From contig CAZUQX010000004.1 in the NCBI GenBank assembly GCA_964623205.1, positions 38,064 to 102,063 of the forward strand: DNA of 64,000 nt. Reading direction: 5' to 3'. A program made the position numbers and the translations under genes. Every line of letters starts with the position of its first letter. Position 1 is the first letter of the stretch. Source of the DNA: an uncultured Candidatus Bathyarchaeia archaeon (GTDB lineage Archaea > Thermoproteota > Bathyarchaeia > Bathyarchaeales > Bathyarchaeaceae). Positions 8,880 to 20,275 of the stretch are shown here, one piece after another. The notes beneath the pieces are model-generated. The model did not search any database. It was not told the DNA's origin and saw only the letters and a list, made by a program, of their open reading frames with translations.

Positions 8880-11849
8880 ATGAATCAAAAAAAGCTAATG
8901 ATGATTTTGGCGACTACAACAATTATGGTAATGCTATTAGTTCCTATGCTAGCTTCTCAGTTAGCAGTTGCTGCAACTTATGATTCGGAGTATATGACAG
9001 TCGATGGAGTGCTAGATACCGACACGTACGTGCTCTGGCCATTTGATGACTCAAAGAGTCTGAAGGTCGGCTTCTCCAAATATGGAGAGATGATTGACCG
9101 GAACACTAAGGTCGGGATAGAATACGGCGGCGCAAGTGGTACTGACCCCTTCGCTACTGATCCAGCTACCGTTGCAGAATACGAGTGGGTTGAAGGCTGG
9201 ATATGTGACATCACCTACGAAGCGGGCGGAGTATACAAGAACATATGGGCACTTGCTCTTCACAGCGACTACTACAACACCTCCAGTATTGGCGGGGATT
9301 GGGTTGAAGGCGTCACGGGTGGTCCCACTAATCTCGCCTTCTTAGGCGGCAGGAAGACCAACGGCGGTGCTGCAACTGACCCCATCACAGTGTTGTACGA
9401 CGGACCTAGGCGGTTTGTTGGCTTATGCCATACGATTATCTACGAGGATGTCGACCACCAGTATCCATTGGTTAGTGTAACCATCACTGTGGTCTTCAAC
9501 AAAGTCAAGAAGCAGGTAATACTGTACAAGGATATCAAACGGTTGGATAATAGGAAATCTGTAGGAAACATGCAGGTCGAGTTCAGTGAAAGGGGCGAAT
9601 ATGACCTTGGCGCAGGAGCTCCACCGAAATCGTATGCATCCATCACCCAAAATATGACGACAGTTTACGATGAACACTATCAAGGCTGGTACACTGGTAG
9701 CGGTATGGAAGGCAAATATGATTTGCTTCAAATTATCGACGATGACATGGAATATGTTGCGTGGGCAGCATGGTGGCCAAAGCCTATTACTACATATGTT
9801 GAGGCTATCCATCTGATTGGTAGAGACACCATTCTTAATACGCTGACCACCCACGAGGAAACATGGACCGGCGACGGTGAATCGACTGATTACCTAATAG
9901 ATGATCATGAGCCAGTGAAAGAACCGTTCGATAGTGAGGACGGACTCTGGAGCGAGGATCCGATGGTGTTCGTAAACAACCAATATCGAATACAAGGTAC
10001 ACATTATTCATACAATGATGCAACTAATACAATAACGTTCTACCCCGCGTACATACCAGCATCTGGAGCCACAGTTAAGGCTGTGTACAAGTATGATGCC
10101 GATAAGAACGACATGAGCGAGGAGGTAGGCGTACCCTTTGCAAGCGCTGGCTGGGCCTTTGTGATGGACGAAACTACCGACCAGTTCCGTGCGGTAACCG
10201 TTTATGGAGTCTGTGACTACAACGACGGAACCGACGCAGACATGGTTGGTGAATCCACTAACACTATTGATACTGAAGTATGCTATTACATGGATGAGAC
10301 CTTTAATCCCTACGACCTCAAGCAAGCAGTTCACAAGGATACTAGACGATGGGTGTACAAAACTTCAAGCTTTTCCGGAAGTTCAATCACACTAGCAAAT
10401 GCGCCGATGGACCCATATCCATACCCAGTCTGGGATGAATACTGCACTTTTGCTGAAAGAGTGCTAGTTAATGGCGTTCTACAGGTACCCCAGAGGGCAG
10501 GCAGATCCTCGTATGACTACACCTTAAGCGTTAGCGCCACAACCGGCAAAGGCACCATCAACTTTAAGACTTCGAAGTCTGGAGTAGCGTTGAAGGTGCT
10601 ATACTCCACTCTACCCGAATGGAGTGATAGCGACACTGTCGAGCTTACTGACTATACTAACAACATGGCAAATGACACATCGGCGACTACTGTAAGTACA
10701 ACAATGGCTGAGTCAGGCCTGTTAGCGCCTATGGACCCCTTGGGTCTAAGTATGCGCCACAACTACACAGGCATGGATCCAACAGTGGTGATTGGAGGTA
10801 CCCAGCTTAACTTCACCGAAACAGTTAGCTTCAGTTATGCAATTGAAGTCGACGACTTCAAGGTGCTATATGATCCTAACCTTGATCCAGACGACGACGT
10901 CGATGCTCAAATATACACCTACGACACCATGAATGAAACAAGCGCTAACTTCACAGCAGCAGTGGCCGCCAGCGGTTACCGTTGGTTCGAAATAGATGCA
11001 GATTACGAAAACACTGTTGTCGACGATCTGTATATCCGAGTGACTCTAGATGTTACTGTAACACGTTGGCTAAACGCAACACACTCTTGGACCAACGTTA
11101 CATGCTCTCCAGAAATCTACTACTCCTATAATGCACACCAAGAGGGTGCATACGAATGGATGGTCGTGGGTAAAGACGCTGCAACCATCGACTCTGCAGG
11201 CGCAGCCTACATGACTCAAGCCTTTGACTCCAAGAAACAAATCCATGTCCAAGTCACAGGCTTAGACATCAAGGATGAAACATGGGGTCCAGAGGTTCCA
11301 AACGTCATGGCAGGAGCAACAACAGGCACTAGGACAGACTACTACTATGACTACCCAACCGACATGAGATGTGGTCTACACGACGACTGGTGCACAACCT
11401 GGCCAGTAGCCAGCAGCAACATGCTCTTCTCAGGCGGACCACGCGCAAACCTGGGAACAGAATACTTCAACGAATTCACAATGGCATTCTACGCATCAAA
11501 CGAATATGTAGTCAACAACACTGGACACCAAGATGAAATCCTAGCACTATCCTGTTGGGACAAACACTCCTACGGCGCCGGATACGCAACAATATCCGTC
11601 TACAAAGACCTCAACGGAACCATAGGCTTCCTAATTTGGGGTGTTGACGGGCAAGACACATACTTTGCAACCAAATGGTTCTGGGAATCAGGAATCTACT
11701 ACCTACAACAAGAGAACGACGGCGTCACTGACATAATACTAAAAATAAACTACGCAGCACACCCACCAACAATCAGCATAGTTGAACGCTTAGGCACAAT
11801 CAGCCACAAAGAACAACACGACTGTCCACCAACAGAATTCATACCTTAA
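8880..11849 (+). CDS. Secreted large surface protein, candidate S-layer/surface glycoprotein
   Basis: N-terminal signal/TM KKLMMILATTTIMVMLLVPMLASQLAVAA. No enzymatic motifs seen. About eleven N-x-S/T sequons by manual reading, mostly in the C-terminal half. Sits within the glycosylation island and is followed by a C-run/T-tract. Confidence 0.5.
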   Translation: MNQKKLMMILATTTIMVMLLVPMLASQLAVAATYDSEYMTVDGVLDTDTYVLWPFDDSKSLKVGFSKYGEMIDRNTKVGIEYGGASGTDPFATDPATVAEYEWVEGWICDITYEAGGVYKNIWALALHSDYYNTSSIGGDWVEGVTGGPTNLAFLGGRKTNGGAATDPITVLYDGPRRFVGLCHTIIYEDVDHQYPLVSVTITVVFNKVKKQVILYKDIKRLDNRKSVGNMQVEFSERGEYDLGAGAPPKSYASITQNMTTVYDEHYQGWYTGSGMEGKYDLLQIIDDDMEYVAWAAWWPKPITTYVEAIHLIGRDTILNTLTTHEETWTGDGESTDYLIDDHEPVKEPFDSEDGLWSEDPMVFVNNQYRIQGTHYSYNDATNTITFYPAYIPASGATVKAVYKYDADKNDMSEEVGVPFASAGWAFVMDETTDQFRAVTVYGVCDYNDGTDADMVGESTNTIDTEVCYYMDETFNPYDLKQAVHKDTRRWVYKTSSFSGSSITLANAPMDPYPYPVWDEYCTFAERVLVNGVLQVPQRAGRSSYDYTLSVSATTGKGTINFKTSKSGVALKVLYSTLPEWSDSDTVELTDYTNNMANDTSATTVSTTMAESGLLAPMDPLGLSMRHNYTGMDPTVVIGGTQLNFTETVSFSYAIEVDDFKVLYDPNLDPDDDVDAQIYTYDTMNETSANFTAAVAASGYRWFEIDADYENTVVDDLYIRVTLDVTVTRWLNATHSWTNVTCSPEIYYSYNAHQEGAYEWMVVGKDAATIDSAGAAYMTQAFDSKKQIHVQVTGLDIKDETWGPEVPNVMAGATTGTRTDYYYDYPTDMRCGLHDDWCTTWPVASSNMLFSGGPRANLGTEYFNEFTMAFYASNEYVVNNTGHQDEILALSCWDKHSYGAGYATISVYKDLNGTIGFLIWGVDGQDTYFATKWFWESGIYYLQQENDGVTDIILKINYAAHPPTISIVERLGTISHKEQHDCPPTEFIP

Positions 11850-11875
11850 AAAAGCCAAACAAGTCGCAAAAAAAT

Positions 11876-11893
11876 CCCCCCTTTTCTTTTTTT
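11876..11893 (+). terminator. Oligo-T archaeal-type terminator after the surface protein gene
   Basis: ccccccttttctttttttt immediately downstream of the stop at 11849. Confidence 0.45.
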
Positions 11894-12089
11894 ATATATT
11901 AAATACCCTTTTTCTCACACAGAAATTATAGCATACCTTTTCAATCGCTCACAAAATATGAAAAATCCACCTCACTTGCAAGGGTGAATAAAACACAAAT
12001 TTATCCTATTTTATAAATAAACTACCTTTAGATAGTAGTACCAACGTGAATCTGGCAAAAGAAATCAGTAACGAAAGGTAGTTCACCAA

Positions 12090-13244
12090 ATGATCAACAT
12101 ACTGGTCCCCTCCGCATCCCACCTCCTAACAGACCACCTCCTATCCAGCGAAGGAATCACATGCTACAACCTCTTCCAAAAACTAGAAAAACTCAACTAC
12201 CACTTCGAAGCAATCAGCCCCCAAATTCACATAAAAAAACCCTTAAACAACACAACACTCCACCAAACAGGCTCCTTCAAAACATCACCAACCATGAATC
12301 CCATCAAAAAATATCTCAGCCACATAGAAACTCTAATCCGCACCTACCGAAAATCTCTAGAAATCCTGCAAAAACAAAAAATCGACATAATACACCACAT
12401 GCTACCCGCCATCTACAACCAAACCTTCAACCCTCTCGCAATCCTCAAAAAAACCAAACAACCATTCATCTTCGGTCCAATATCCGCCCACATCTACCCA
12501 AGACCCATAGACGAAAAAATTCTGTCACACATAACGTCCAAACTCCACAAAAAAACAATCCAAAAATGCCACAGACTAATAACAATCACAAATCACGTAA
12601 AAAAGCTCTACCAAAACTTCTTCGACGAAGAAAAAATAATCACCATCCCATTAGGAGTAGACACAGCCCTCTTCAAACCCCCAAAAACCCAATTCCAGAA
12701 AAAAAACCCTGAAATACTCTTCGCAGGCTACCTCTACAAACTAAAAGGAGCAGAATACCTACTAAAAGCCACACAACTAATAGCGAAAAAACACAAAAAC
12801 GTAAAACTCAGAATAGTCGGAAACGGCCCCGACAAACCGCGCCTCATGAAATTAACCGAAACCCTGAAAATAGAAGACAAAACAATCTTCGAAGGTGAGG
12901 TCCCACACACAGAAATACCCAAATATTACCAGCAATGCGACATCTTCTGCTTCCCAACGCTCGGAGAACCCTTCGGAAAAGCCATAATAGAAGCCATGGC
13001 ATGCGCAAAACCAGTCATCGCATCAAACATCGGAGGACCAACAGAAATAATACAAAACCAAAAAACAGGACTGCTTGTGCCTCCAGCACAACCCAAAATT
13101 CTCGCCACAAAAATCCTAGAACTACTGGACAACGAAACCAAAATGAAAAACATGGGAACAAACGCAAGAAAAACTGCCATAGAGAAATACTCTTGGGAAA
13201 AAATAAGTGAAAAGTACCATAGCCTCTACAAAACTCTCAACTAA
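12090..13244 (+). CDS. Glycosyltransferase family 4
   Basis: C-terminal GT4 core FCFPTLGEPFGKAIIEAMACAKPVIASNIGGPTEIIQNQKTGLLVPP. The coding strand is extremely A+C-rich (see findings). Confidence 0.8.
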   Translation: MINILVPSASHLLTDHLLSSEGITCYNLFQKLEKLNYHFEAISPQIHIKKPLNNTTLHQTGSFKTSPTMNPIKKYLSHIETLIRTYRKSLEILQKQKIDIIHHMLPAIYNQTFNPLAILKKTKQPFIFGPISAHIYPRPIDEKILSHITSKLHKKTIQKCHRLITITNHVKKLYQNFFDEEKIITIPLGVDTALFKPPKTQFQKKNPEILFAGYLYKLKGAEYLLKATQLIAKKHKNVKLRIVGNGPDKPRLMKLTETLKIEDKTIFEGEVPHTEIPKYYQQCDIFCFPTLGEPFGKAIIEAMACAKPVIASNIGGPTEIIQNQKTGLLVPPAQPKILATKILELLDNETKMKNMGTNARKTAIEKYSWEKISEKYHSLYKTLN

Positions 13245-13267
13245 ACACACTTTTCAAAGAACCGTTT

Positions 13268-14752
13268 TTATCCTTTTACCACTCCTATCGGAACCAACCG
13301 GACAACACGAGTCGCTATCCCAACCTTGTCGCTCACATCCACCACCATATCGACATTCTTATACGCTGGATCAGCCTCTTCAGCCAAAACAACCGAACTG
13401 GCAGCTCTAACAACAATCCCTCGACCCTCCAAACCCTCCTTCACGTCTCCCCCCCAGAACCTCCTCTTCGCAGCCGACCGACTCATCACGCGACCAGCGC
13501 CATGAGCCGTAGAACCAAAAGAAACCTCCATCGCCTTAGTCGTTCCCACCAAAAGCCATGAACTTGTACCCATACTTCCCGGAATAATAACCGGCTGCCC
13601 CACAGACCGATAATCAGCAGGAACATCCCTATGTCCAGGCGGAAAGCACCGCGTCGCCCCTTTTCTATGAATCCAAACTTTAGTTCGCTTTCCATTCACC
13701 TGATGTTCTTCGATCTTTGCAATATTGTGAGCAACATCATAGACCAAATCCAAACCAAAATCGTCTGACGGTCTCTTTAAAACCTCTTCAAAGCTCTGAC
13801 GAACCCAATGAGTAATGACTTGACGATTGACGAAAGCATAGTTGACAGCGCAGGCCATAGCTTGATAATAGTCTTGAGCCTCGTCGCTGGTGGCAGGCGC
13901 ACATGCAAGTTCTCGATCAGGTAACGAAATATTGTATTTCTGGACAGCCCGTTCCATGACACGGAGATAATCCGAGCACGTCTGATGCCCAAATCCGCGG
14001 GAACCACAGTGGATCAAGACGGTAACTTGCCCTTCATGAGTAACGCCGAAGGTTTTAGCCACTTTCTGATCGTAAATTTTGTCAACCTTCCCGATTTCTA
14101 GGAAATGATTTCCTGAACCGAGGGTACCGCTTTGAGGAAGCCCCCGTCCCTTAGCTCTGGATGAAACCTTATCCGGGTTGGCGCCTTCCATCTGCCCCCC
14201 TTCCTCGCAGTGCTTGGCGTCTTCGGGTCGCCCTAACCCTTTTTTCACCGCCCACGATATTCCTTCAGTAATCAGCTGTTCAAGCTCATGTATGTTCAGG
14301 CGGAAGTCTTTACGGCGACTACCGAGTCCGCTGGGAACGTTCCTGAATATGGTGGTGGTGAGAGCTGCAAGGTAGGGTCGAATATCACCCTCCGAAAGGT
14401 TGGTGGTTAACAGACGGACCCCACAGTTGATGTCGTAGCCCACTCCCCCCGGGCTTATAACCCCCTCCTCATAGTCTGTAGCCGCAACCCCGCCTATGGG
14501 AAAACCGTATCCTTCGTGACCGTCGGGCAATGTAACAGCATACTTGTAAATGCCTGGTAAGTGAGCGACGTTGGCGCACTGATCGAGGGTTCGATCCGTT
14601 TTTATCTTTTGTATGAGTTGTTCGTCGGCAAAGACCATGCCAGGAACGCGCATACCGGACTTGTAACTTGTGGGTATGCGCCAGCTGTAATCATTAATCT
14701 TCTCGAGGGGAACATCTGATGCCTGCCCTCGGAATCTTCTTTGCCCACTCAT
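13268..14752 (-). CDS. rtcB: RNA-splicing ligase RtcB
   Basis: 494 aa with GYDINCGVR, GSGNHFLE, HCGSRGFGHQ and AHGAGR motifs. Length is normal, so no intein. Confidence 0.93.
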   Translation of the reverse strand: MSGQRRFRGQASDVPLEKINDYSWRIPTSYKSGMRVPGMVFADEQLIQKIKTDRTLDQCANVAHLPGIYKYAVTLPDGHEGYGFPIGGVAATDYEEGVISPGGVGYDINCGVRLLTTNLSEGDIRPYLAALTTTIFRNVPSGLGSRRKDFRLNIHELEQLITEGISWAVKKGLGRPEDAKHCEEGGQMEGANPDKVSSRAKGRGLPQSGTLGSGNHFLEIGKVDKIYDQKVAKTFGVTHEGQVTVLIHCGSRGFGHQTCSDYLRVMERAVQKYNISLPDRELACAPATSDEAQDYYQAMACAVNYAFVNRQVITHWVRQSFEEVLKRPSDDFGLDLVYDVAHNIAKIEEHQVNGKRTKVWIHRKGATRCFPPGHRDVPADYRSVGQPVIIPGSMGTSSWLLVGTTKAMEVSFGSTAHGAGRVMSRSAAKRRFWGGDVKEGLEGRGIVVRAASSVVLAEEADPAYKNVDMVVDVSDKVGIATRVVRLVPIGVVKG

Positions 14753-14856
14753 AAAATCACCTTTAACTAAAGACTCGCGTAAGGAACTTATAAACTATGA
14801 GTGACACATCATATACCCTGAAAATTTTCACTCTCTCGTGCGCACACAAAATAATC

Positions 14857-15981
14857 TCAAGTATATACTGACACTAGAGTTTTCTGTTTATTTCGGTCTG
14901 ATTTGAAGTCGTCTAGCCAACCAGCTTTTGCATTTATCTTACGCTTGAATATTTTACCCAATTTTTTTCTGTTTTTGGCTTGATGGTATTTGAAGTAAAC
15001 CTCATTGTCAACAATGCCCAAGACCTCAATTTTACCAGTTTTGTGGGACATAATGTATCTGAAGCGTTTACTGGGTCCATTGCATCTTGCTTTCGCTTTC
15101 TCTATAATGTTGACGCCTTCGCATAGTGGAACTTGAAACTGCTTTTTAACTCTCTTGACAGGTCTGCACTGAAAAACGTAGTAAGGATTAACACCTATGC
15201 CGACCAGTTTGTTCATTAATTCTGCAAGTGTTTCCGCACTGTCGTTGACCCCTTTGAGTAGAATTGTTTGGTTGTTAACTACCACCCCTGATTTAATCAG
15301 GTTGTCTACAGCCTCGATTGACTGTTTAGTTATCTCTTTGGGATGATTGAATTGAGTAACAACCAATAGCCTTCTCTCTGGAGTAGAATATTTAGCCATT
15401 AATTCTAGCAGTTCATTGTCTCGGAATCTTGAAGGAAACGTGACTGGAGCCCTACTACCAAACCTAACGAAATCAAGATGAGAAATGTCAGATAGCATTG
15501 ATAAGAATCGTTCAATAATCTCATTAGGAAGCACAAGGGGGTCGCCCCCAGAGATCAACACATTATTAATCTCTGTATGGTGCCTTATGTAACGCACTGG
15601 GGCTTCGAAATCTTCAATTATCTCCCTAGTTTCTCGTCGTCCAACGAGTCGTTTTCTAAAGCAATGCCTACAATACATTGCGCATCTATTTGTGGCAAGT
15701 ATTAGTGCAGTTTCAGAGTATTTGTGTTGAAGCCCCCGCAGTTTTGTATTTTCCACTTCGCCACTAGTATCATAGGAACCTTGCAGATTCAACTCGTCTA
15801 GTGATGGAATAGCCATTTTTCTTATCGGATCAGCGGTATTGCTCCAATCAATAAGCGACATGTAGTAAGAAGTTACTTTAATTGGATGTCTTGCAGTAAC
15901 TCGTTTAAGTTTCTTCATTTTTTCCTGTGATATGTCAACATACTTGCTTAATTGTTCAATTGAACATATTGCCCCGCTCAT
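14857..15981 (-). CDS. KamA-family radical SAM protein (lysine 2,3-aminomutase-like)
   Basis: CxxxCxxC cluster CAMYCRHCFRKR, ISGGDPL, and the C-terminal KamA-like region PYYVFQCRP. Confidence 0.75.
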   Translation of the reverse strand: MSGAICSIEQLSKYVDISQEKMKKLKRVTARHPIKVTSYYMSLIDWSNTADPIRKMAIPSLDELNLQGSYDTSGEVENTKLRGLQHKYSETALILATNRCAMYCRHCFRKRLVGRRETREIIEDFEAPVRYIRHHTEINNVLISGGDPLVLPNEIIERFLSMLSDISHLDFVRFGSRAPVTFPSRFRDNELLELMAKYSTPERRLLVVTQFNHPKEITKQSIEAVDNLIKSGVVVNNQTILLKGVNDSAETLAELMNKLVGIGVNPYYVFQCRPVKRVKKQFQVPLCEGVNIIEKAKARCNGPSKRFRYIMSHKTGKIEVLGIVDNEVYFKYHQAKNRKKLGKIFKRKINAKAGWLDDFKSDRNKQKTLVSVYT

Positions 15982-16491
15982 TTAGTTCTCATCTCCTGAA
16001 TCATTCACAAGTCGATTAGTTACTGTGTTTGTTTTTGCTTGTAAAATCCGCCACGAAGCTCGACCAATATCATAAATGAAGATAAAGATTACTCCAACTG
16101 CAATCATTACTATCGCTGCTACCAGTCCAGTTCCAATATTAACAGAAATTTTCAAAAGAGGAATTATGGCAGCAGTTGCCAAGATTATAACTATAATAGC
16201 CACCAAATCTTTTACCACTCTATCTCTGGACCACTGTTCTTGTATGCCCAAACGCGTAATGAAAAGACCTATTGCTTTGTCGGCTATAACCAAAATATTG
16301 GACAATGCTCGTATCAGAAAAACTCCCGCAATAAGGACAAAAACTAGCCAAGACAAATAACCCACACCCTCAATCATCGTATCCAATAGGAGCGAAGAGA
16401 ATAAGCCTAATGCCCAAAAAACCAGAGCTAGAGCCGTGTTAGCTAATAAACTGGGAAGCTTATCCCTGAATTCTTGACGGAGAGAGTTCAC
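15982..16491 (-). CDS. Small polytopic membrane protein, unknown function
   Basis: 169 aa with about 4 hydrophobic helices. Its stop codon directly abuts the kamA-like start (TAAATG). Confidence 0.45.
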   Translation of the reverse strand: MNSLRQEFRDKLPSLLANTALALVFWALGLFSSLLLDTMIEGVGYLSWLVFVLIAGVFLIRALSNILVIADKAIGLFITRLGIQEQWSRDRVVKDLVAIIVIILATAAIIPLLKISVNIGTGLVAAIVMIAVGVIFIFIYDIGRASWRILQAKTNTVTNRLVNDSGDEN

Positions 16492-16797
16492 ACTTATCCA
16501 ATCCTAACCTCAATCTCTTTCTATTAGTGTCGAATTTCTGATATGCAACAGGTTACAAAGTAATTGCGTGCGTACCGTATCGACGACAACTACTGGAAAC
16601 GAGTTATATCTTCATGTTCTCGCGAGGGTTTATAACCTTTAACCCTGACAAGCCTCGCCGTTAATCAATATCTTAATGGGTTGTCTCTTACCCACTTAGC
16701 CGTGTTTTATTTTTCATGGAATTACGGCTTACGTATTAAACCACAATCTTTAAGAACCGCTTCTATTCAATGAGCATGTAAATCGGATGTAAATGAA

Positions 16798-17295
16798 ATG
16801 TCAGTTGAAGAATCATCTGAAAGTGAAGAATTGGTGAAGATAGAAACGCTGACCCCAAATTCGAGGGGTGTCAACACTATTGTGAAGGTAGTTTCTAAAG
16901 GTGAAGTCAGAAGCGTCACGGGAAGAGATTATTCTGTTCGCAGAGTTGCAGATGCCTTGGTGGGAGACGAAACCGCATGCGTATACATGACCCTTTGGGA
17001 TGATAAAATAGACGCGGTAAACGAAGAAGCCACCTTGCGAATCACCAACGGTTACATAAACCTCTTCAGAGGAAACATGCGCTTGAACATTGGGAAATAC
17101 GGTAGTTACGAGGTTCTAGAAGATTCACCGATCACGGAAGTCAACACTGAGAACAATCTGTCCGACAAACGCTACGAGCAAGAGAGACGATTCGGAAGAG
17201 GCGGCGGATACGGCGGAAGAGGCGGCGGAAGAGGCGGCGGAAGAAGCGGCGGATACGGCGGAAGAGACGGCGGATACCAGCGAAGAAGATACTAA
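16798..17295 (+). CDS. ssb: Single OB-fold ssDNA-binding protein, crenarchaeal type, with RGG/GYGG C-terminal tail
   Basis: ALVGDETACVYMTLWDDK...ITNGYINLFRGNMRLNIGKYG resembles the Sulfolobus SSB OB fold. Tail is GRGGGYGGRGGGRGGGRSGGYGGRDGGYQRRRY. Confidence 0.75.
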   Translation: MSVEESSESEELVKIETLTPNSRGVNTIVKVVSKGEVRSVTGRDYSVRRVADALVGDETACVYMTLWDDKIDAVNEEATLRITNGYINLFRGNMRLNIGKYGSYEVLEDSPITEVNTENNLSDKRYEQERRFGRGGGYGGRGGGRGGGRSGGYGGRDGGYQRRRY

Positions 17296-17389
17296 AAACT
17301 TTTTCCCCATTTTCTTTTTTTGTTGTTCGCGCCAGTTGTACTAAGCTAAAATAGCTGATGCTTTTCGGCTCAACAGGTCGTCAGATTGT

Positions 17390-18412
17390 TTATGTTTGTC
17401 TTGGGGTTTTTTTGAATAGTTGATAGATTTGTCCAGTGCAGAAGGAAAGGGTTCTGAAGATGTCAATGATGGGGAATATGATGATTCTAGAGAATTTTTT
17501 GTTTTTGAGTGCTCTGTATGCGTAGATTGACATTACCATAAGTAAAGGTAAGCCTGTGAATCCGAATAGTAGCCAGCGGAAAAGGCTGGAATTTGAGGTG
17601 AGAGTTAGAACGGTTAGGGATCCGGTTATTAGCAGCCAACTTATGAATCCCATTAGTCCTAGAAAGGACCATTTAGAGACGGCGTCTTTCAGTTTTTTCT
17701 GTTTAAGCACCATGCCGCTTCCTTTGCCGTACTGAAAGTTTTGTTTCAGAAATTCTTTAAGGGTTGATCTGTGTTTGTGCCAGACTAAAACATTGGGGTC
17801 CAGAACCATTTTGTAACCAGCCTTGCACACTCTGTCGGCGAACTCGACTTCGTCGAAGCCGTATTGAATGTTTTCGTCAAAGTATCCGACTTCTTCGGCT
17901 ACTTTTCGTCTAAAAGCCATGTTGCATCCTGCTGGATGGCGGAAGAAGGGTTTTACCTTTTCGAGTTCTTCTCGTTTCGTGAAGAAGGGCATCAGGCGTA
18001 CTATGCTGTTGTCGGCGTATTGGGAGATGAAGTCGTTGTCAAGGGCTTTTGCGCTTCCGCTCACGCAGCTGACTTTGGGGTCTTTGAAGTTCTCGACAAT
18101 TTTTGTTATCCAGTTGCTGGGCACTACACAGTCAGCGTCGGTGAAGGCTACGATTTCGCCGTTGCCGCACTTTATCCCCGTGTTTCTCGCGATGTTTAGT
18201 CCTTTTCTTCTTTCAACAATCAATTTCACGGGATATTTTTTGACTATTTCCCGGGTTTTGTCTGTTGAGTTTCCGTCGACTACAATCACTTCTACTTTTT
18301 TTCTGTCGTAGTCCAGCCTTTGAAGAGACTCTAGTAGAGGCTGGATGGTCAGTTCCCCGTTTCGTACAGGAACAACCACAGTGACTGAGGGGGGTGTTTT
18401 GTAGTCTTCCAT
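17390..18412 (-). CDS. Glycosyltransferase family 2 with C-terminal TM helices
   Basis: VTVVVPVRNGE...VIVVDGNSTDKT...AFTDADCVV (DxD) plus C-terminal hydrophobic helices. Confidence 0.8.
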   Translation of the reverse strand: MEDYKTPPSVTVVVPVRNGELTIQPLLESLQRLDYDRKKVEVIVVDGNSTDKTREIVKKYPVKLIVERRKGLNIARNTGIKCGNGEIVAFTDADCVVPSNWITKIVENFKDPKVSCVSGSAKALDNDFISQYADNSIVRLMPFFTKREELEKVKPFFRHPAGCNMAFRRKVAEEVGYFDENIQYGFDEVEFADRVCKAGYKMVLDPNVLVWHKHRSTLKEFLKQNFQYGKGSGMVLKQKKLKDAVSKWSFLGLMGFISWLLITGSLTVLTLTSNSSLFRWLLFGFTGLPLLMVMSIYAYRALKNKKFSRIIIFPIIDIFRTLSFCTGQIYQLFKKTPRQT

Positions 18413-18551
18413 TAAAATCGCTTCTCTTCCTACGTAGCGTAGAATCCACTCAAACCAATTTATTATTTACGCCAAAAAAGGCTTAAGTTAGCCTAATAAT
18501 CTTCTATGGAACGAGAAAACGTGCTGGAAAAGGTAAAACTTCGGTTCCACT

Positions 18552-19592
18552 ATGGTGGTACGTGTGTCTGAAAAGAGCGTGGGTTGTCCTTCTGTTTCAA
18601 TTGTGATAGTGAACTTTAATGGGAGAGAATTTTTGAGGCAGTGTTTGCTCACGCTTTTGGATACGGATTATCCTAATTATGAGATTGTTGTTGTTGATAA
18701 TGCTTCGACGGATGGGAGTGTCGAGGAGGTAGAGAGGTGTTTTGGTTCGGATCCTCGCATAAAGTTTGTTAGAAACCGTGAGAATGTGGGGCATGCTGAG
18801 GGCTGTAATATTGGGGTGCGGGTGACTGGGGGGCGTTATATTGTTTTTTTGGATAGTGACACGGAATTCAGGGCTGAGGATTGGCTTTGGGAATTGGTTA
18901 GGGTTATGGAGAGCGATGAGGGTGTGGGGTTGGCGCAGGCTAAACTGGTGTTGGCTGAGGATAATGGTTGTTTGGATTATGTCTGTGTGGCTGTTGATGC
19001 TTTGGGTACGTGGGCTGCGACTTATGGGTTAAAGGATGAGGGGTTCAAAGAGAATTTTGAGATTTTGGCGGCGTCTTCGGGTTGTTGTATTGTTCGGAGG
19101 GAGGTTTTTGATGAGGCTGGAGGCTTTGATTCTGATTATTTCATTTATGATGATGACACTGATCTTTCTCTTCGGGTGAGGTTGTTGGGTTATCGGGTGT
19201 TGTTGGTTCCTTCTGCTGTGGTGGTTCATCGTGGTGGTGTCTTGAGGGGCTTGAATAGTAGGACTCTTTTTCATTCTTCTAAGAATCGGGTGCGGACTGC
19301 GCTTAAGAATTATGAGTTGAGGAATGTTTGGTGGAGGTTTTCGGTTTTGTCCTTTTTCACGTTTATTGTTTCTGTTGGTTTTGCTTTTTTGGGAAAGAGT
19401 GATGAGGCTAAGGCTACCTTCAAGGGGTTGCTGAGTCCAGTGAAGGACTTTCGGAGTATATGGAGGAAGAGGCTTGTGCTTCAGTCTAAAAGGCGCGTGA
19501 GAGACTGTGAGCTTGTTCGCAAAGGCTTCGTAAGAAACGACTTTCGGTCTACACTGCAGGATTTCAGGATAAAACTGAAACACATGCAATAG
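18552..19592 (+). CDS. Glycosyltransferase family 2
   Basis: VSIVIVNFNG...IVVVDNASTDGS...VFLDSDTEF. The coding strand is extremely G+T-rich. Confidence 0.8.
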   Translation: MVVRVSEKSVGCPSVSIVIVNFNGREFLRQCLLTLLDTDYPNYEIVVVDNASTDGSVEEVERCFGSDPRIKFVRNRENVGHAEGCNIGVRVTGGRYIVFLDSDTEFRAEDWLWELVRVMESDEGVGLAQAKLVLAEDNGCLDYVCVAVDALGTWAATYGLKDEGFKENFEILAASSGCCIVRREVFDEAGGFDSDYFIYDDDTDLSLRVRLLGYRVLLVPSAVVVHRGGVLRGLNSRTLFHSSKNRVRTALKNYELRNVWWRFSVLSFFTFIVSVGFAFLGKSDEAKATFKGLLSPVKDFRSIWRKRLVLQSKRRVRDCELVRKGFVRNDFRSTLQDFRIKLKHMQ

Positions 19593-19801
19593 TCAGCTGT
19601 TTTCCAGAAAAAAGCTTGTTTTCAACATAGAAGTATTATTGGGCTTCAAATAGGTTGGAGGAGTTTTTCAATATCTAAAACTGATCAGCGCATGTGATAG
19701 TAGCATCGTATTTTTGTTCTAGGTGCTCACGTTTTATTGTAAGCGGGGAGAATAAGATTTATCGTGATTTGTTGATTAAGTATTATGTGTAGTGGTAAGG
19801 T

Positions 19802-20275
19802 ATGGTTACGAAAAGGAAGAGTTGGGTTGAGAAGCTGCATGACAGTAAGGGCTTGCCTAAGGTTGAGAAGATCACTGAGAAAATGAGTAAGCGATGGGGT
19901 ACTGGGACCGTTGTTATTCCAGCACCTTTAGAGGTGGATGCGTTGATGAGGAAGGTGCCTGAGGGAAAGCTTGTTACTATTAATGGGCTTCGTGAGGCTC
20001 TTGCTAAGAAGCATAAGGCGTCTATTGGCTGTCCCATGACAACAGGCATCTTTGCCTGGGTGGCTGCCCATGCTGCTGAAGAGCAGAGACAAAACGGAGT
20101 TGAGGATATTACACCTTACTGGCGTACGTTGAAGGCGGGCGGGGTTCTGAATCCGAAATATCCGGGTGGAGTGGAAGGGCTGAAGAAGCTTCTGGAAGCA
20201 GAAGGACACAAGGTCGTTCAAAAAGGTAAAAAACATGTAGTTACTGATTACGAGAAATCGCTAATAGAACTCTGA
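19802..20275 (+). CDS. MGMT-family-like protein (no PCHRV active site seen)
   Basis: KRWGTGTVVIPAPLEVDALMRKVPEGKLVTINGLREALAKKH...GCPMTTGIFAWVAAHAAEE, recalled as the MGMT family protein pattern. Confidence 0.4.
   Translation: MVTKRKSWVEKLHDSKGLPKVEKITEKMSKRWGTGTVVIPAPLEVDALMRKVPEGKLVTINGLREALAKKHKASIGCPMTTGIFAWVAAHAAEEQRQNGVEDITPYWRTLKAGGVLNPKYPGGVEGLKKLLEAEGHKVVQKGKKHVVTDYEKSLIEL

Follow-up and report, generated by a model that had tools for sequence, protein, structure and literature searches.

The window analysed here, a stretch of 64,000 nucleotides (nt) from an uncultured Candidatus Bathyarchaeia archaeon (assembly GCA_964623205.1, contig CAZUQX010000004.1, positions 38,064 to 102,063 of the forward strand), contains between positions 11250 and 13800 a block in which the plus strand is extremely rich in A+C, irrespective of the boundaries and the orientation of the genes it covers. 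Blocks of this kind occur throughout the genome and follow a common rule: at the ends of segments that are conserved between related genomes, the strand that has its 3' end towards the junction is enriched in G+T, and that running into the segment in 5'>3' direction in A+C, over a distance of approximately 2-2.5 kb. This link between the polarity of the skew and homology boundaries is the new element of the analysis, and a published account of the pattern was not found in the literature on Bathyarchaeota strand asymmetry, on archaeal keto skew (in which only replication skew is treated) and on synteny breakpoints. As the best reading of the blocks we favour, with somewhat more confidence than doubt, a process linked to DNA ends during recombination, and the block of the window is rather probably the footprint of repeated end processing at a site where a frequently replaced variable gene meets conserved DNA.

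Composition and extent of the block

The genome under study (G000) belongs to the genus of Candidatus Bathyarchaeum tardum and is represented by 1.86 Mb in 31 contigs (96% complete), with the window located on contig C4. In overlapping 500-nt intervals the A+C content of the plus strand is 0.636 at positions 11501-12000, rises via 0.672 and 0.718 to a peak of 0.748 at 12251-12750, declines via 0.712 and 0.700 to 0.684 at 13001-13500 and is down to 0.516 at 13751-14250. Values of 64-75% prevail across 11.25-13.8 kb, and intervals of 100 nt reach up to 79/100 (at 12201-12300). The genomic background has a mean of 0.500 with a standard deviation of 0.047 (7394 intervals of 500 nt), and a value of at least 0.74 occurs in a single interval of the whole genome. 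The core of the block extends from 12100 to 12800, and the baseline is regained within about 300 nt at 13550-13850. The original prediction, which was made from the sequence alone, had described an A+C-rich block at 11700-13800 that ignores gene boundaries and orientation; this description is borne out by the counts in 500-nt intervals and at third codon positions, except that the left edge is a ramp beginning near 10 kb and that the block is not unique in the genome. A raised G+C content, as would indicate GC-biased gene conversion, was not found in the block (0.38-0.46 versus about 0.43 for the contig).

The block covers the last approximately 120 codons of a plus-strand gene encoding a surface protein (8880-11849; 989 amino acids, no Pfam match), an intergenic spacer (11850-12089; 61% A+C), the entire plus-strand gene of a GT4 glycosyltransferase (12090-13244; Pfam Glycos_transf_1) and the 3' third of the minus-strand rtcB gene (13268-14752; Pfam RtcB) that specifies the tRNA-splicing ligase. 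The A+C content of third codon positions (p3) was scored in bins of 40 codons in the sense of the plus strand. It amounts to 0.88, 0.85 and 0.80 in the last three bins of the surface-protein gene, to 0.80-0.95 over the whole GT4 gene and to 0.78-0.85 in the final 120 codons of rtcB, from where it drops to 0.65 and then to about 0.5, which confirms the predicted extent of the block across the three genes. The skew is greatest at p3 and lesser at first (p1) and second (p2) positions, the coding strand of the GT4 gene having an A+C content of 0.68 at p1, 0.61 at p2 and 0.88 at p3; among the blocks of the genome, p3 extremes of 0.89 or 0.10 are reached.

Since only the 3' approximately 120 codons of rtcB (13268 to about 13650) lie in the block and are encoded on the minus strand, the coding strand is G+T-rich there. 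The final 120 residues of RtcB are dominated by V, G, A, S and R, and the HGAGR motif is kept, the dominance of V, G and R codons and the retained motif having been noted in the original prediction. Likewise, the predicted shift of the GT4 protein towards K, P, T, H, Q and N was recovered, these residues making up 41% of the protein, whereas unskewed orthologues have 26-31% and the proteome as a whole 25%. The predicted alternative frame of 183 codons on the plus strand inside the GT4 gene (12161-12712) exists in the open-reading-frame list; it appears to be a by-product and not a gene, open because the depletion of T and G removed stop codons.

Polarity of the skew at homology boundaries

The genome was compared with those of its closest species, G012 and G020, which together with G000 are referred to as the three sister species, and with more distant members of the genus that served as outgroups. 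Within the window, a segment of 8.5 kb (approximately 11.1-19.6 kb) is conserved in the three sister species, with non-homologous variable DNA on both sides. Its left boundary is located at 11000-11250, the collinear chain with G020 starting at about 11150 (C4:49213-54705, corresponding to window positions 11150-16642), and its right boundary at 19600-19750, beyond which different genes are present in each of the three genomes. The A+C-rich block is situated at the left end of the conserved segment and a mirror block, in which the plus strand is G+T-rich (17300-19600), at the right end, with a flat centre between them. The mirror block spans two divergent GT2 genes, one on the minus strand (17390-18412) and one on the plus strand (18552-19592), both matching Pfam Glycos_transf_2, and it ends at the right homology boundary.

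The left flank of the conserved segment is formed by the hypervariable middle of the surface-protein gene (about 9000-11100), for which the two sister species offer no match at the DNA level (blastn coverage is absent at 9250-11000). The surface proteins are only 44-56% identical in amino acid sequence among three sister species whose rtcB products are 92-94% identical. The gene resembles a diversifying or frequently replaced surface gene. On its left side a G+T skew was observed that is mild in G000 (8.25-8.75 kb) and strong in G020, and on its right side the A+C-rich block. The same arrangement at segment ends was detected at blocks on contigs C3, C14, C8, C9 and C2, and at C3 and C14 pairs of a G+T-rich block followed by an A+C-rich block flank variable DNA.

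For a genome-wide test, 81% of G020 was aligned to G000, and chaining of the matches gave 333 collinear segments (median length, 1.9 kb); 334 segment ends located at least 1.5 kb from the end of a contig or of the compared sequence were kept. The A+C content of the strand running inward in 5'>3' direction is 0.517-0.523 at 250-2000 nt from the boundary, declines to 0.503 by 3 kb and exceeds 0.5 at 216 of the 334 ends (Wilcoxon p = 4e-13), with identical values of 0.519 for left and for right ends. The effect persists when the 30 most extreme ends are left out (p = 1e-9) and when every region that had been inspected by hand is omitted (n = 307, p = 4e-12), and it is also present in G020 itself. 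Near boundaries p3 is shifted in either gene orientation, by +0.04 to +0.06 in one and by +0.02 to +0.04 in the other. Among 34 strong peaks overall, 16 lie in segments homologous to G020, and 14 of these have the sign given by the nearest segment end (p = 0.004), the two others fitting with boundaries to G012 instead. The gene order of G000 and G020 is very shuffled for genomes with a DNA identity of about 84%, and neighbouring cassettes of G000 are found on different contigs of G012 and G020.

Distribution of the blocks in the genome

With a block defined as at least 500 nt with an A+C content of at least 0.64 or at most 0.36, a sliding-window scan yielded about 30 blocks of both signs in G000, with lengths of 1-3 kb, of which that of the window is the strongest. 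The affected genes include varied core genes such as purF, metK, the genes for NAD kinase and the RFC small subunit, pyrH (UMP kinase) and the gene for a 2-oxoacid:ferredoxin oxidoreductase (OFOR); the names of core genes in blocks were assigned by reading of the translations. The blocks occur in both polarities relative to the coding strand, and 17 extreme genes are divided into 12 with an A+C-rich and five with a G+T-rich coding strand. The p3 values of the coding strands of neighbouring genes are correlated positively in tandem pairs (r = 0.33) and negatively in divergent (r = -0.24) and convergent pairs (r = -0.15), and the composition of intergenic regions follows that of flanking third positions (r = 0.27). 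The negative correlation between genes on opposite strands, along with the tracking by intergenic DNA, indicates that the unit of the skew is the DNA strand and not the gene. One sign of the DNA strand is maintained through the convergent pair GT4/rtcB and through the divergent pairs GT2/GT2, purF/metK and UGDH/galU.

No consistent asymmetry between sharp and gradual block edges was recognized over 34 blocks, and arguments from block shape were therefore dropped. Nor are switches of the skew anchored at GGCC motifs, the mean step across 1244 GGCC sites being a negligible 0.014, though this was the largest value of the 16 four-base palindromes. GGCC is also the rarest four-base palindrome in G000 (1244 sites as compared with 2583 of CCGG), which may reflect avoidance related to restriction and modification. 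A different rule applies to a virus-like region of G000 (C9:44000-52000) that includes a portal-like protein of 400 amino acids and is absent from G020 and G003: here the coding strand of every gene is A+C-rich (p3 0.73-0.90) in any orientation and in all carrier genomes, a coding-strand rule that is unlike the DNA-strand blocks.

Heritability and origin in place

All three sister species carry the block of the window; in about 20 further members of the genus it is either weak or missing. Being shared by independently assembled sister species and lacking in distant members, it is regarded as real and heritable. The same rtcB codons have a p3 A+C content of 0.50-0.60 in the outgroups, and the orthologues of the GT2, rtcB and ssb genes track the species tree. 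Polarised substitutions revealed the predicted excess of G>A and T>C on the plus strand: on the stem lineage that leads to the three sister species, rtcB acquired 24 changes towards A/C (nine G>A and 15 T>C) versus two towards G/T, a trend that persists in G020 (37 versus 6). Transversion rates are similar in the skewed and unskewed parts of rtcB. In the GT2 mirror block the mirror bias is present on the stem (25 versus 8) and was reversed later in G012 (2 versus 28). This reversal and that of the OFOR gene in G020 (orthologues of C14:40187-42399; 0 versus 18 transitions) go beyond the expected compositional relaxation, and the flanking DNA differs in both cases.

The nearest orthologues of the GT4 gene are either unskewed, with p3 values of 0.56 and 0.54, or mildly skewed (0.72); that of G001, with 74% amino acid identity and a p3 value of 0.56, is located 83 kb from the rtcB gene of this genome. 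The block over the OFOR gene is common to G000 and G012 only, and that over purF and metK is strong in the three sister species and weak in the outgroups. Taken together, these sequence comparisons show that the block was formed in place, through G>A and T>C changes of the plus strand in genes that had been inherited vertically. A regional strand-asymmetric process, rather than selection on one gene or transfer of one gene, had been proposed originally, and this view is supported by the extension of the skew over opposite genes and a spacer as well as by the agreement of the orthologues with the species tree.

Substitution spectrum of the blocks

A pooled spectrum was compiled from 1084 polarised synonymous sites of ten block genes, read on the A+C-rich strand and accompanied by control genes; the blocks on C9 (44-52 kb) and C20 (sugar genes) were excluded from polarisation as too variable among relatives. 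Forward transitions (G>A and T>C) amount to 0.604 per site in block genes versus 0.310 in control genes, and reverse transitions (A>G and C>T) to 0.095 versus 0.332. The transversions are biased in the same sense, with forward changes (T>A and G>C) at 0.092 per site versus 0.047 in control genes and reverse changes (A>T and C>G) at 0.022 versus 0.051 (Fisher p = 1e-6 for forward versus reverse transversions in block genes). Each of the changes G>A, T>C, T>A and G>C is four- to sevenfold more frequent than its strand-complementary reverse, the ratio being 4-5 for T>A and G>C, whereas transversions that are neutral with respect to class occur at control rates (A<>C, 0.125 versus 0.107; G<>T, 0.047 versus 0.066). 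When multiple hits are corrected for in a simple way, forward changes proceed at about 2.4 times and reverse changes at about 0.26 times the control rate. Both rates are reproduced by a single fixation-bias parameter S of about 2.2, and equally by an alternative model in which about 90% of the events are allotted to one strand.

Within the blocks, the three sister species show no rise in synonymous divergence at p3, with 0.19-0.29 for the GT4 and GT2 genes versus 0.17-0.32 for unskewed neighbours, and the level of 0.20 transitions per site stays constant over the distance from boundaries. Accordingly, the raised local mutation density that would be expected of mutagenesis at resected ends was found neither in the divergence, which is flat, nor in the reverse changes, which are at about 0.26 of control. 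An effect of neighbouring bases was not detected for T>C, and for G>A the ATG and TGG codons confound what seems to be a 5' effect. Plain hydrolytic deamination is expected to favour C>T, whereas on the G+T-rich strand A>G (0.69 per site) is at least as frequent as C>T (0.54).

The original prediction had attributed the pattern to C-to-T and A-to-G deamination of the minus strand. Both transitions are present, and the affected strand fits with 5'>3' resection; the suppressed reverse changes, the biased transversions and the lack of extra divergence do not agree with this proposal. Added damage predicts an unchanged reverse rate; with the observed rate quartered, with a bias of T>A and G>C that is as large as that of the transitions and with divergence not raised, simple added deamination damage does not fit. 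Since the direction of change shifts about ninefold without a rise in rate, a bias in repair or conversion is indicated rather than damage.

Further features of the conserved segment

The unskewed centre of the conserved segment is occupied by a radical-SAM gene and a small membrane-protein gene of 169 amino acids on the minus strand (14857-16491). These two genes are located between rtcB and ssb in the three sister species only; the outgroups have rtcB and ssb as direct, divergent neighbours. In addition to the Pfam matches of the GT4, RtcB and GT2 proteins, an Ssb-like OB domain and a radical-SAM domain were identified. In the final 40 codons of ssb (17170-17295) the p3 A+C content is 0.93, the sister species showing 0.72-0.82, and right after the 3' end of ssb, at 17.3 kb, the sign flips to a G+T-rich plus strand in less than 150 nt. 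Beyond the G+T-rich block, an open reading frame of 157 amino acids (19802-20275), which is present at this position in G000 only, matched the DNA-binding domain of O6-methylguanine methyltransferase weakly and below the threshold (E = 5.6e-4).

Proposed end processing at recombination junctions

The surface-protein gene is flanked by G+T-rich DNA on its left and by A+C-rich DNA on its right, which corresponds to the polarity of resection, and it is for this reason that the block is read as a footprint of end processing. In such a process, DNA ends would be handled repeatedly at junctions during recombination, either in the course of allele replacement of a variable gene or during the repair of breaks, and bidirectional 5'>3' resection at a break would leave one fixed strand single-stranded. 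As resection in 5'>3' direction always leaves the same strand, the two strands would have fixed and unequal roles. The bias itself might be introduced by the fixation of lesions, namely deaminated C and A or abasic sites, on the single strand that is retained, or by biased handling of mismatches in a heteroduplex or fill-in tract, and purifying selection would then leave the effect strongest at synonymous sites. The polarity expected of resected ends is the one observed at the 334 boundaries and at 14 of the 16 strong peaks, and the boundary skew, which is at baseline by 2.5-3 kb, agrees in scale with the 2-4 kb of resection that are normally expected for allelic gene conversion (PMC6786661).

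Several points weigh against such end processing. NurA (PF09376), which commonly serves as the resection nuclease of archaea, gave no match in G000, G001 and G003, with Mre11, Rad50 and HerA not included in the search. The same PF09376 search matched all four archaeal control genomes and three bacterial ones; G000, G001 and G003 are 92-96% complete. The mean effect at boundaries is small (+0.02 at all sites and +0.02 to +0.06 at p3), strong blocks being present at a minority of ends, and ends without skew or with the wrong sign exist, for example at 16.0-16.5 kb of the window, as do short segments in which one end dominates. Moreover, the boundaries were defined relative to a single sister genome and to 81% of it. 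Simple break-associated hypermutation predicts neither the lack of a rise in divergence, in blocks or near boundaries, nor the suppressed reverse changes. The causation could also be reversed, with skewed DNA being prone to rearrangement.

A possible role of NucS/EndoMS

A match to NucS_C (94.9 bits) was identified at C7:26396-26734 in G000, and MutS (MutS_V) was not found in this genome, which is 96% complete; MutL was not included in the search. Cleavage by the NucS/EndoMS nuclease is confined to mismatches of the G/T, G/G and T/T types, those of the A/C, A/A and C/C types being left untouched (PMC6159521). The division into cut and ignored mismatches equals the keto/amino split of all four biased changes in the blocks, and a bias in mismatch processing or conversion is therefore a serious candidate for the cause. 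The four class-changing types of substitution with their four- to sevenfold asymmetry and the class-neutral types at control rates speak for consistency with NucS, not for its involvement. A more specific version of this idea, to which we assign a clearly minor share of the probability, regards the blocks as the result of strand-asymmetric biased gene conversion with a constant heteroduplex polarity in the homology arms beside variable DNA, a keto-specific NucS/EndoMS nuclease that would act on mismatches of the G/T type and not on those of the A/C type, a directional fixation of alleles with an S value of about 2 and no rise in the mutation rate. The enzyme has been described for replication errors across the whole genome, and a local strand-fixed footprint or a heteroduplex role that generates skew is not given in the respective reports (PMC6159521, PMC4838380).

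Alternative explanations

Transcription could produce a skew on the kilobase scale that is strand-specific and switchable by promoter changes, if a dominant transcript (read-through or antisense, possibly with R-loops) exposed one strand to deamination; several block edges coincide with gene ends, and near boundaries co-oriented genes are shifted somewhat more than anti-oriented ones. We consider this unlikely, as the sign does not follow the transcribed strand of each gene and stays the same across the convergent and divergent pairs named above, as 12 of the 17 extreme genes are A+C-rich on the coding strand, the opposite of deamination of the non-template strand, and the other five are G+T-rich, and as rtcB is affected in its 3' third only. 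The suppressed reverse changes and the biased transversions likewise argue against transcription. Quite unlikely is a replication origin or initiation zone in the interval that separates the A+C-rich block from its mirror block (13.8-17.3 kb), from which outward leading strands would be G+T-rich. The order of A+C followed by G+T is the classical sign of an origin and the ssb gene lies between the blocks, but both Orc1/Cdc6 genes, with which archaeal origins are usually associated, are located on other contigs (C1 and C10), and the p3 skew at the C1 Orc1/Cdc6 gene changes only from about 0.51 to 0.46, a step of about 0.05 that compares with ±0.4 in the blocks. Furthermore, the blocks measure 1-3 kb instead of chromosome arms, the 3.5 kb between the two blocks are flat and do not form a ramp, and three other pairs of blocks have the reverse order of G+T followed by A+C.

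Selection on the codon usage or mRNA properties of individual genes, for instance for unstructured A+C-rich mRNA or a tuned translation speed, would account for the strongest effect at third codon positions, for the fit of forward and reverse rates by the single S value and for the slight A+C richness of coding strands genome-wide (p3 0.53). It would have to give opposite codon preferences to neighbours on opposite strands while the DNA strand stays uniform, to act on only the 3' third of rtcB, to skew spacers as well and to reverse its sign between sister species for the same gene (GT2 in G012 and OFOR in G020); this explanation is very improbable and already largely refuted. The chance that pre-skewed foreign DNA was imported, with the GT4 cassette and the end of rtcB derived from a skewed donor, is rated as slight. 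The surface-protein and GT4 genes occupy the place of two other genes in the outgroups, a GT4 orthologue is situated elsewhere in the G001 genome, and gene order is heavily shuffled in the genus; on the other hand, the closest GT4 orthologues are unskewed or mildly skewed, the 3' part of rtcB shows directional transitions and not general extra divergence, the blocks over GT2, purF, metK and OFOR developed on genes that are syntenic and were inherited vertically, and the skew was still rising after the split of the three sister species. An artefact of assembly, binning or sequencing might be suspected in a metagenome-assembled genome of 31 contigs with some blocks near contig ends, but its probability is practically negligible in view of the same block with intact frames and conserved motifs in genomes of three independently assembled species and of a p3 skew much greater than that at p1 and p2, which reflects biological codon structure.

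Comparison with known strand asymmetries

In the heavy and light strands of vertebrate mitochondrial DNA, C>T and A>G changes accumulate on the strand that spends time in the single-stranded state. The blocks share with it a strong keto/amino skew at synonymous sites in any gene orientation; both transitions are present together on one of their strands, T>A and G>C being directional as well. The mitochondrial skew is genome-wide and tied to replication, whereas the blocks are islands of 1-3 kb tied to homology boundaries in an otherwise symmetric chromosome.

A resemblance in geometry is found in yeast, where strand-coordinated mutation clusters with a single switch flank breaks that were bidirectionally resected in 5'>3' direction, with changes at C of the top strand on the left and at G on the right (PMC6786661), and where bases are damaged in single-stranded DNA (PMC3521656). 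To the left of the junction, the blocks correspondingly show top-strand changes at C and, here, at A as well, and to its right at G and also at T; they share the kilobase scale and the dependence on the strand that survives 5'>3' resection. The yeast clusters differ in being single events with an added deaminase or mutagen and a raised mutation density, whereas the blocks are evolutionarily close to equilibrium at synonymous sites, where A/C reaches up to 95%, include A>G and transversions, lack excess divergence and show suppressed reverse changes. The replication asymmetry of prokaryotes is similar to the blocks in the orientation-independent keto excess on one strand and in the change of sign at defined points (PMC3269016, PMC3269012). 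It extends over chromosome arms and not over kilobases, its amplitude at the Orc1/Cdc6 gene on C1 is about one-tenth of that of the blocks, and the sign changes described here are located at synteny junctions instead of origins.

Implications

The blocks distort statistics of codon usage, horizontal transfer and binning, and they open spurious reading frames. They also separate mutation rate, mutation direction and fixation bias, which are usually confounded, and a bias in repair or conversion represents a concrete hypothesis that is testable by a knockout of nucS. If strand-asymmetric conversion were true, it would constitute a new evolutionary force that records recombination hotspots and their polarity in archaeal genomes. 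Experimental recombination maps do not exist for these organisms; if the link to homology boundaries holds, the kilobase-scale keto/amino skew would provide a readable record of the sites of repeated end processing and of their polarity in uncultured archaea.

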